A stretch of DNA of 64,000 nucleotides. Source: Escherichia coli (GTDB lineage: Bacteria > Pseudomonadota > Gammaproteobacteria > Enterobacterales > Enterobacteriaceae). Positions 31,898 to 33,439 of this stretch are shown in pieces; position 1 is the first letter of the stretch; each line of letters begins with the position of its first letter. The notes under the pieces are model-generated. The model searched no databases. It had not been told where the DNA came from and saw nothing but the letters and a program-made list of their open reading frames with translations. The position numbers and the translations under genes are program-made. The DNA lies in NCBI RefSeq assembly GCF_024502345.1, contig NZ_JALDNN010000001.1; one strand, written 5' to 3'.

Positions 31898-32074
31898 TCG
31901 GTCAGTCCCAAAATTTTGTTAAAGCAAGTTTAAAATGTCACCTGTTTCTCCAAAGTTGAAATGTCACTTCTAAGCCAATCTATTTATACATAATCTTTAC
32001 ATCTTTCCCCGGTGACAAAGTGCTAATTGGTCTGTAATGTTCAATGTGTGGCAGGCAAGCCGCCGGTGACTTAG

Positions 32075-33270
32075 GGAAGGTGCGAACAAGTTCCTGATAT
32101 GAGATCATCATATTCATCCGGAGCGCATCCCAGAGGGACATCATGAGCCATCAACTCACCTTCGCCGATAGTGAATTCAGCACTAAGCGCCGTCAGACCC
32201 GAAAAGAGATTTTCCTCTCCCGCATGGAGCAGATTCTGCCATGGCAGAATATGACCGCTGTCATCGAGCCGTTTTATCCCAAGGCGGGCAATGGCCGACG
32301 GCCCTATCCGCTGGAGACCATGCTGCGTATTCACTGCATGCAGCATTGGTACAACCTGAGCGACGGTGCCATGGAAGATGCCCTGTACGAAATCGCCTCC
32401 ATGCGCCTGTTTGCCCGATTATCCCTGGATAGCGCCCTGCCGGATCGCACCACCATCATGAATTTCCGCCACCTGCTCGAGCAGCATCAACTGGCCCGTC
32501 AATTGTTCAAGACCATCAATCGCTGGCTGGCCGAAGCAGGCGTCATGATGACCCAAGGCACTTTGGTGGATGCCACCATCATTGAGGCACCCAGCTCTAC
32601 CAAGAACAAAGAGCAGCAACGCGATCCGGAGATGCATCAGACCAAGAAAGGCAATCAGTGGCACTTTGGCATGAAGGCCCACATTGGTGTCGATGCCAAG
32701 AGTGGCCTGACCCACAGCCTGGTCACCACCGCGGCCAACGAGCATGACCTCAATCAGCTGGGTAATCTGCTTCATGGAGAGGAGCAATTTGTCTCAGCCG
32801 ATGCCGGCTACCAAGGAGCGCCACAGCGCGAGGAGCTGGCCGAGGTGGATGTGGACTGGCTGATCGCCGAGCGTCCCGGCAGGGTAAAAACCTTGAAGCA
32901 GCATCCGCGCAAGAACAAAACGGCCATCAACATCGAATACATGAAAGCCAGCATCCGTGCCAGGGTGGAGCACCCGTTTCGCATCATCAAGCGGCAGTTC
33001 GGCTTCGTGAAAGCCAGATACAAGGGGCTGCTGAAAAACGATAACCAACTGGCGATGTTATTCACCCTGGCCAACCTGTTTCGGGTGGACCAAATGATAC
33101 GTCAGTGGGAGAGATCTCAGTAAAAACCGGAAATAACGCCAGAAATGGTGGAAAAAATAGCCTAAATAGGCTGATTCGATGTGTTTGCGGGAAAAAAATC
33201 GGCCCAGATCCGCGAAATTTTAATCAGCGAGTCAGCTTGGGAAGAAATGACCTGCTTATTCGCACCTTCC
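32075..33270 (+). mobile_element. IS5
   Basis: Ends GGAAGGTGCGAACAAG ... CTTATTCGCACCTTCC; about 1195 bp; transposase ORF 32143..33123. Confidence 0.9.
32143..33123 (+). CDS. insH: IS5 transposase
   Basis: 326 aa beginning [37 protein letters not shown], matches recalled InsH. Confidence 0.9.
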
Positions 33271-33439
33271 TTAATATAAAGACACAAGCAGAGACATTTT
33301 TGGCACGATATAAAAACGCTAAGTTAAAAAATCACTATGACGTGTTGGGTATCAAATGTTCACTGGCATAAACCTCTGTTTCTGATGTAAAACAGATTTT
33401 CTGAGGAGGCGTAAAACCTCCTCGTACTGCGAAATTGAT

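Follow-up and report, generated by a model that had tools for sequence, protein, structure and literature searches.

An ISKpn26 copy with unmatched flanking tetranucleotides in Escherichia coli probably marks a joint between two segments of separate origin

Introduction

IS5 of Escherichia coli K-12 is an insertion sequence (IS) of 1195 bp that produces a 4-bp duplication at YTAR targets. The element described here shares with it the inverted-repeat core GGAAGGTGCGAA and the type of target, but is a 1196-bp variant, ISKpn26. ISKpn26 normally duplicates 4 bp of its target; in acrR of ST11 Klebsiella pneumoniae, for instance, a simple insertion of the element lies between two copies of CTAG (PMC8023600). 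It is multicopy in Klebsiella chromosomes (PMC4471558), and recombination between two of its copies removed 110 kb from a clinical plasmid (PMC5142620). Plasmid-borne IS elements are often found without perfect duplications (PMC4471558; PMC12492035), whereas chromosomal copies keep their duplications more often (PMC4471558).

We analyzed a single copy of ISKpn26 in a 64-kb stretch of E. coli DNA (hereafter the window). Like the copy in acrR (PMC8023600), it is 1196 bp long, with the same 16-bp ends, a 326-aa transposase and flanks of the YTAR type; unlike that copy, which splits a gene and has the same CTAG on both sides, it lies between different tetranucleotides that belong to unrelated loci. 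The clinical plasmid that lost 110 kb (PMC5142620) provides a closer parallel, in that an enterobacterial plasmid was rearranged, a copy of ISKpn26 remained as the scar and hybrid flanks are expected. In that case, however, both parents had been sequenced and the loss was observed directly, whereas in the window the mechanism is inferred. Unmatched flanks likewise mark intra- and intermolecular IS-mediated events in the reorganization of plasmids by IS26 (PMC4471558). IS26 belongs to the IS6 family, generates 8-bp duplications and follows an obligate cointegrate route; ISKpn26, in contrast, is a member of the IS5 family and is not known to transpose replicatively.

As judged from sequence comparisons, the ISKpn26 copy in the window very probably constitutes a joint between two segments of separate origin, with flanks that are native halves of two YTAR targets. 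The finding is an instance of a known pattern in a known element, with a joint present in hundreds of public sequences, and its significance extends little beyond annotation. An IS without a matching duplication on IS-rich, plasmid-derived DNA is usually a sign that modules of different origin meet there; the seam here would lie between a plasmid toxin-antitoxin segment and a ferritin-like gene captured from a chromosome.

Results

Identity and extent of the element

The positions of the element, its flanks and the neighboring genes are listed in Table 1. Compared to full-length copies annotated by PGAP as ISKpn26, the IS in the window showed 99.6-99.9% identity (2-5 substitutions) and the same length of ~1196 bp. 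Identical copies are named by PGAP 'IS5-like element ISKpn26 family transposase'. The label IS5, used for this element in an earlier note on the same DNA, is therefore appropriate at the family level, but the element itself is ISKpn26. Among records that matched the whole query, only one (H17) contained a copy annotated as IS5 proper, with 97.8% overall identity over the IS and its flanks.

A search with the 16-nt terminal-repeat pattern GGAAGGTGCGAAYAAG gave two exact matches (32075, plus strand; 33270, minus strand), against 0.02 expected by chance. The terminal inverted repeats are 16 bp long, imperfect and present at both ends. The transposase scored 367.5 bits (cut-off 140) with the NCBIfam model NF033581 (IS5 family transposase) over residues 24-313 of 326. 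We found no second copy of ISKpn26, whole or partial, within the 64-kb window; a single copy with no partial one does not make a composite transposon bounded by two copies of ISKpn26.

Table 1. Positions of the element, its flanks and the neighboring features in the window
Feature	Position	Strand	Basis
Conserved mosaic segment: IS110-family remnant, higBA, ISKpn26, ferritin-like gene, start of IS26	29752..34303	.	99.5-99.9% identity
RelE/ParE-family toxin (higB-type)	31274..31603	+	PGAP on identical L001 sequence, ORFs, Pfam
HTH antitoxin (higA-type)	31584..31865	+	PGAP on identical L001 sequence, ORFs, Pfam
Non-coding element with TGTCAC/GTGACA half-sites and promoter-like stretch	31921..32070	+	Read by eye
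Left 4-bp flank TTAG, native target of left locus	32071..32074	.	IS-free homologues L029, L030, L031
ISKpn26 (IS5 family, IS5 group), complete, 1196 bp	32075..33270	+	Both ends by pattern search
IRL, GGAAGGTGCGAACAAG	32075..32090	+	Pattern search, 0 mismatches
Transposase ORF, 326 aa, intact	32143..33123	+	ORF list, NCBIfam NF033581
IRR, GGAAGGTGCGAATAAG (read on minus strand)	33255..33270	-	Pattern search, 0 mismatches
Right 4-bp flank TTAA, native target of ferritin-downstream locus	33271..33274	.	IS-free homologues L036-L039
Native 3' region of ferritin-like gene including terminator hairpin, cut by IS	33275..33439	-	Homologue alignment
Non-heme ferritin-like protein gene, 166 aa	33440..33940	-	NCBIfam NF011597, 209.9 bits, cut-off 154

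Flanking tetranucleotides and the ends of ISKpn26

The earlier note had reported that the ends of this element, over the range 32071-33274, are not bounded by an exact 4-bp duplication. That range is exactly the IS plus its two 4-bp flanks, and our measurement agreed with the statement: instead of the identical duplication left by a simple insertion, TTAG precedes the element and TTAA follows it. The two tetranucleotides are mismatched at the fourth base, and both fit the YTAR target of the IS5 group. At the other retrieved copies, the flanking tetranucleotides were mostly TTAG, TTAA, CTAA and CTAG, with TCAG or CCAG on the left in two.

All combinations of boundary shifts up to 4 bp per end were examined. 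When both boundaries were moved 1 bp to the left, a literal CTTA/CTTA repeat was obtained (32070-32073 and 33270-33273, with an element at 32074-33269), so that the boundaries may be supposed to be one base off and CTTA/CTTA to be the true, perfect duplication. As a string, a one-base shift of the kind that the earlier note considered fatal to its own reading thus exists, but it is invalid. C32070 in the flank equals the terminal C of the IS, and G32074 in the flank equals the first G of the IS; the shifted boundaries would add a flank G to the left end and drop the terminal C of the right inverted repeat. The CTTA/CTTA repeat is a string coincidence. In 21/21 other copies with both ends retrieved, the element starts with GGAAGG after a variable A/G and ends with CCTTCC before a variable T/C. 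Because these copies share the same start and end, the ends of ISKpn26 are fixed, the extra G is not part of the IS and the terminal C is not part of the flank. In addition, G32074 was found in IS-free homologues of the left flank, and IS-free homologues of the right flank have G, not C, before TTAA. The empty site implied by the shifted boundaries, GGTGACTTAATATAAAG, was absent from PLSDB, E. coli genomes, GTDB representative genomes and the JGI metagenome scans. Shifted boundaries are already refuted by the fixed ends of other copies, and the chance that they are nevertheless the true ones is extremely small.

The left flank and its IS-free homologues

On the left side, the IS is preceded by a toxin-antitoxin gene pair of the higBA type; proteins identical to the products of the pair matched Pfam families Gp49 and HTH_37. 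The pair is followed by its terminator and then by a non-coding stretch of ~150 bp up to the IS. Similarity to an IS-free higBA plasmid (L028) ends at 31920, and the element that occupies the remaining 150 bp was seen in its exact form only beside the IS.

Diverged homologues of this element occur without the IS in other plasmids. In a K. quasipneumoniae plasmid (L029), 145/160 nt are identical to the left flank; in two Enterobacter plasmids (L030 and L031), 80/93 and 77/89 nt are identical, and there are about 50 records of the L030 type. In all three loci, the sequence runs uninterrupted through the insertion point as ...CCGGTGAC-TTAG-GCA..., with GGTGAC just before TTAG and GCA after it. 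Beyond TTAG-GCA, an 'abortive infection family' gene follows after ~510 bp in the Enterobacter sequence, and this continuation showed no match to the window. TTAG is native to the left locus.

The element itself (L029, 4000-4158; L030, 4001-4093; L031, 4001-4089) is 86-91% conserved in these plasmids. In the window, we noted by eye four TGTCAC/GTGACA half-sites and a promoter-like TTTACA...TGCTAAT stretch within 31921-32074. Rfam and tRNA scans of the element and its homologue gave no matches. In the Enterobacter plasmids, it is located 3' of a tRNA 3'-end fragment and upstream of the 'abortive infection family' gene, and a small hydrophobic ORF of 34 aa lies between the element and that gene.

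The right flank and its IS-free homologues

On the right side, the IS abuts the 3' region of a ferritin-like gene. P0004, which shows 84% amino acid identity to the ferritin-like protein of the window, is among its closest full-length relatives, and these are encoded at loci L036-L039. The four loci are IS-free, and their gene order is ferritin-like gene, 375-bp spacer and DcuA/DcuB transporter gene. The right flank (170 nt) aligned with the spacer without gaps at 115/170 identical positions, compared to ~43 for random placements. At the position of the junction, at the same ungapped offset and 36 nt after the conserved block CGTTTTTATATC, L036-L039 have ATATTAA. The sequence then proceeds as CCCTCCTC... 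toward the DcuA/DcuB gene and is unrelated to the left flank.

Only 9/29 nt are identical directly before ATATTAA, which is at chance level; for this reason, the native status of TTAA depends on the 7/7 match of this heptamer, the offset being fixed and ungapped. Like TTAG in the left locus, TTAA is native in the right one; the homologues behind these two assignments are diverged, with 86-91% identity for the left flank and 68% for the right.

The ferritin-like gene has been truncated independently elsewhere. In pECL_A of Enterobacter cloacae ATCC 13047 (L027, ~2950-3003), a terminal repeat, which from its terminal sequence we take to be that of a Tn3-family element, abuts the ferritin-like gene two bases before the stop codon and replaces the 3' region that is kept in the window.

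Flanks of ISKpn26 are not contiguous in IS-free sequences

An ordinary explanation of the mismatch is that higA and the ferritin-like gene once shared an uninterrupted intergenic region, that the IS entered it by simple insertion, and that one of the two duplicated tetranucleotides was later altered (G to A or A to G). The two tetranucleotides do differ by a single transition; moreover, higA and the ferritin-like gene point toward each other and both have a terminator of their own, so that the region between them would be a plausible intergenic target. Under this explanation, the empty site would read GGTGACTTARTATAAAGAC, with the exact form ...GCCGCCGGTGAC-TTA(G/A)-TATAAAGACACAAGC....

No contiguous match was obtained with a joined-flank query in PLSDB and E. 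coli genomes. The query returned only six records, which contain a shortened IS of 608 bp rather than an empty site. When each junction was queried alone, exact-form flanks always abutted the IS or were shortened by a later insertion or deletion; the finding that neither exact-form flank is ever seen without the IS is in keeping with a simple insertion. GTDB representative genomes were scanned with a pattern from the left flank alone; the single match, 21 nt inside a Hydrogenovibrio chemoreceptor gene, was due to chance. Two scans of JGI metagenomes gave 0 matches. The comparison with an IS-free allele that the earlier note had suggested was therefore made on diverged homologues.

Whereas a simple insertion requires contiguous flanks, IS-free homologues of each flank continue into DNA that is unrelated to the other flank. 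These homologues carry both TTAG (L029-L031) and TTAA (L036-L039), and neither tetranucleotide looks mutated. Since each is native to its own locus and neither locus runs into the other, a mutated duplication is disfavored, and the suggestion in the earlier note that one flank has mutated was not supported. With no contiguous empty site in PLSDB, E. coli RefSeq genomes or JGI metagenomes, we regard a simple insertion followed by mutation as very unlikely. The arrangement is instead that of a rearrangement joint, in which each flank has its own native target at an unrelated locus.

Two arrangements with matching tetranucleotides were considered as the original insertion and rejected. In L003, TTAA is present on both sides of the IS, but its left flank consists of an incomplete aspartoacylase-family gene, and the remainder of that gene is not present on the right. 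In L026 and L033, TTAG is present on both sides, but these loci lack 166 bp of the native ferritin 3' sequence, including the terminator, and on the right they read TTAG-TGA instead of the native continuation TTAG-GCA. Because these 166 bp are gone, L026 and L033 must derive from an arrangement of the window type.

Spread of the joint and its derivatives

The left junction (flank plus IS) was found in 352 PLSDB plasmids and the right junction in 213; both junctions around one IS were present in at least 143. The whole arrangement was found in 18 E. coli records, and the joint is also present in E. coli chromosomes. The segment 29752-34303 (~4.5 kb), together with an adjoining IS26, is 99.5-99.9% identical in many plasmids and chromosomes. 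In L017, L021 and L024 this identity covers the full span of the segment; in L001, L010 and L020 it stops shortly before the right end. For a larger stretch of 23-24 kb around the IS, no record covering at least 80% was found.

Wherever a retrieved locus has both flanks at the junction positions of the window, the tetranucleotides are exactly TTAG/TTAA. Because the identical joint recurs in many plasmids and chromosomes, the mismatch predates the spread of the segment. The rearrangement did not take place in this genome; the same TTAG/TTAA joint was inherited within the ~4.5-kb segment, which is shared with at least 143 PLSDB plasmids and several chromosomes. The joint may serve as a useful marker for tracing this widespread segment.

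Assemblies typically go wrong at IS copies, and IS elements are very numerous in the window, so a mis-join across a repeated IS has to be considered. However, at least 143 records of complete plasmids share the identical joint, as do many chromosomes assembled independently by different laboratories, and the probability of an assembly artefact is practically negligible.

Among loci that retain these junctions, no base change was seen in either tetranucleotide, whereas the flanks themselves have been replaced repeatedly. The left junction occurs with six different right partners (L002, L005, L008, L026/L033 and L035); for the right junction, three alternative partners on the left were seen (L003, L004 and L015). 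Nine flank replacements against no tetranucleotide change across the retrieved loci also speak against mutation of a duplication. Empirically, rearrangement at the ends of this IS is far more frequent than mutation of its flanks.

Some derivatives have shifted junctions. In L004, the left junction is displaced by 100 bp to CTAA, and the right junction is unchanged. In L026 and L033, which are K. pneumoniae plasmids, the left junction is as in the window, and the right junction is displaced by 166 bp to TTAG at the ferritin stop codon.

The IS in L004 (3300-3907; six PLSDB records, H31-H36) is a 608-bp derivative of ISKpn26 with both terminal repeats and an internal deletion of ~590 bp, and it resembles a non-autonomous miniature element. 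The copies in L026 (1805-3000) and L033 (3301-4496) have a perfect TTAG/TTAG pair, yet no true target duplication. Since a duplication can arise by accident in this way, matching of the flanks is not enough by itself to establish or to reject a simple insertion.

In two chromosomal copies of the joint, L017 and L021, the 5' third of the IS (~126-524) is of a different, IS5-like haplotype with ~20 differences, and the remainder is ISKpn26-like. These mosaics indicate gene conversion or recombination between variants of the IS5 family. A comparison of IS haplotypes revealed no crossover point, as polymorphisms were too few and most were private to single copies.

Possible origin of the joint

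We propose that the joint originated in two steps. The left segment would be plasmid higBA DNA, with GCA... as the natural continuation after TTAG; the right segment, the 3' region of a ferritin-like gene, would have been captured from a chromosome, where the sequence beyond TTAA would have extended toward a dcuA/dcuB-type gene. An ordinary insertion of ISKpn26 at one YTAR target would have been followed by an IS-mediated event that brought in the other YTAR target. Candidates for the second event are homologous recombination between copies, a transposition-made cointegrate and an adjacent deletion, all of which would give the same product. The comparisons above show that the flanks are not contiguous, that both tetranucleotides are native and that the joint was inherited, whereas the order of these events and the mechanism of the second one are inferred.

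We lean slightly toward homologous recombination, in which a plasmid copy of ISKpn26 at TTAG would have recombined with a copy beside the ferritin-like gene at TTAA. Integration in the style of an Hfr or R-prime could then have been followed by imprecise excision via the neighboring IS26. This preference is based on the multicopy state of ISKpn26 in Klebsiella chromosomes (PMC4471558), the direct observation of such recombination in a clinical plasmid (PMC5142620) and the IS mosaics of L017 and L021, which show exchange between copies of the IS5 family. The reciprocal products would read CTTATTCGCACCTTCCTTAGGCA (IRR plus the left continuation) or ...GGAGGGTTAA followed by GGAAGGTGCGAAC (the dcu side plus IRL). 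A search of PLSDB for the reciprocal joint in which IRR is followed by TTAG-GCA... gave none, and no parental copy was identified. Such an absence would be expected of an old event: the rearrangement is ancient, and the present genome received the joint ready-made in the ~4.5-kb segment.

As the second event, a transposition-made cointegrate or an adjacent deletion is nearly as likely as homologous recombination. It is quite possible, if somewhat short of probable, that the transposase itself made the rearrangement, by replicative fusion of two replicons or by a one-ended attack on a second YTAR site. In the former case, each IS copy would be left with one old and one new flank; in the latter, the second site would be on the same molecule, and the intervening DNA would be deleted. 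IS903, a member of the IS5 family, makes cointegrates and adjacent deletions. A role of the transposase would require one prior insertion instead of two, and the displaced junctions of L004 (left, 100 bp, CTAA) and of L026 and L033 (right, 166 bp, TTAG) resemble nested adjacent deletions that end on YTAR sites. The same products, however, would result from a second nearby insertion followed by recombination. We found no documentation of replicative or intramolecular transposition of ISKpn26 or IS5 in the publications consulted, and no partner copy of a cointegrate was found, either as an IS copy in the 64-kb window or as a reciprocal joint in PLSDB. That the series of displaced junctions (L004; L026/L033) represents field evidence for intramolecular, replicative or one-ended transposition in the IS5 group is conceivable but rather unlikely; if so, elements of the IS5 group would make adjacent deletions and replicon fusions, a behavior not established for IS5 or ISKpn26.

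The explanation offered in the earlier note, recombination between IS5 copies, was thus supported in the broad sense that the IS joins unrelated loci; homologous recombination, which we slightly prefer, would leave a product indistinguishable from that of a cointegrate or an adjacent deletion.

Other IS elements in the window

The wider window is a chromosomal region of the E. coli type with an ECSE_1600 autotransporter gene and hipA, and it is packed with IS elements. About 1 kb from the ISKpn26 joint, an IS1 (768 bp, 34304-35071) is located inside IS26 (34215-35810) with a clean 8-bp duplication, GCATTTCG; in contrast to the joint, this is a textbook simple insertion.

A 1058-bp repeat is present in five copies of 99.7-100% identity and in both orientations (16835-17892, 20247-21304, 28694-29751, 51508-52565 and 57361-58418). 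The copy at 28694 encodes a transposase of the IS5 family (IS903-type, NF033579), and matching loci are annotated as IS903B. Two tandem IS110-family elements (36911-38316 and 38347-39751) are 80% identical to each other, and a third copy (29753-30501) is only partial, being truncated where the IS903-type element adjoins it at 29751.

The ORF at 21215-24694 matches only the C-terminal part of the ECSE_1600-family autotransporter (model positions 632-1629 of 1806). Its start is just inside or after the IS903-type copy at 20247-21304, and the autotransporter gene appears to have been truncated by that copy.
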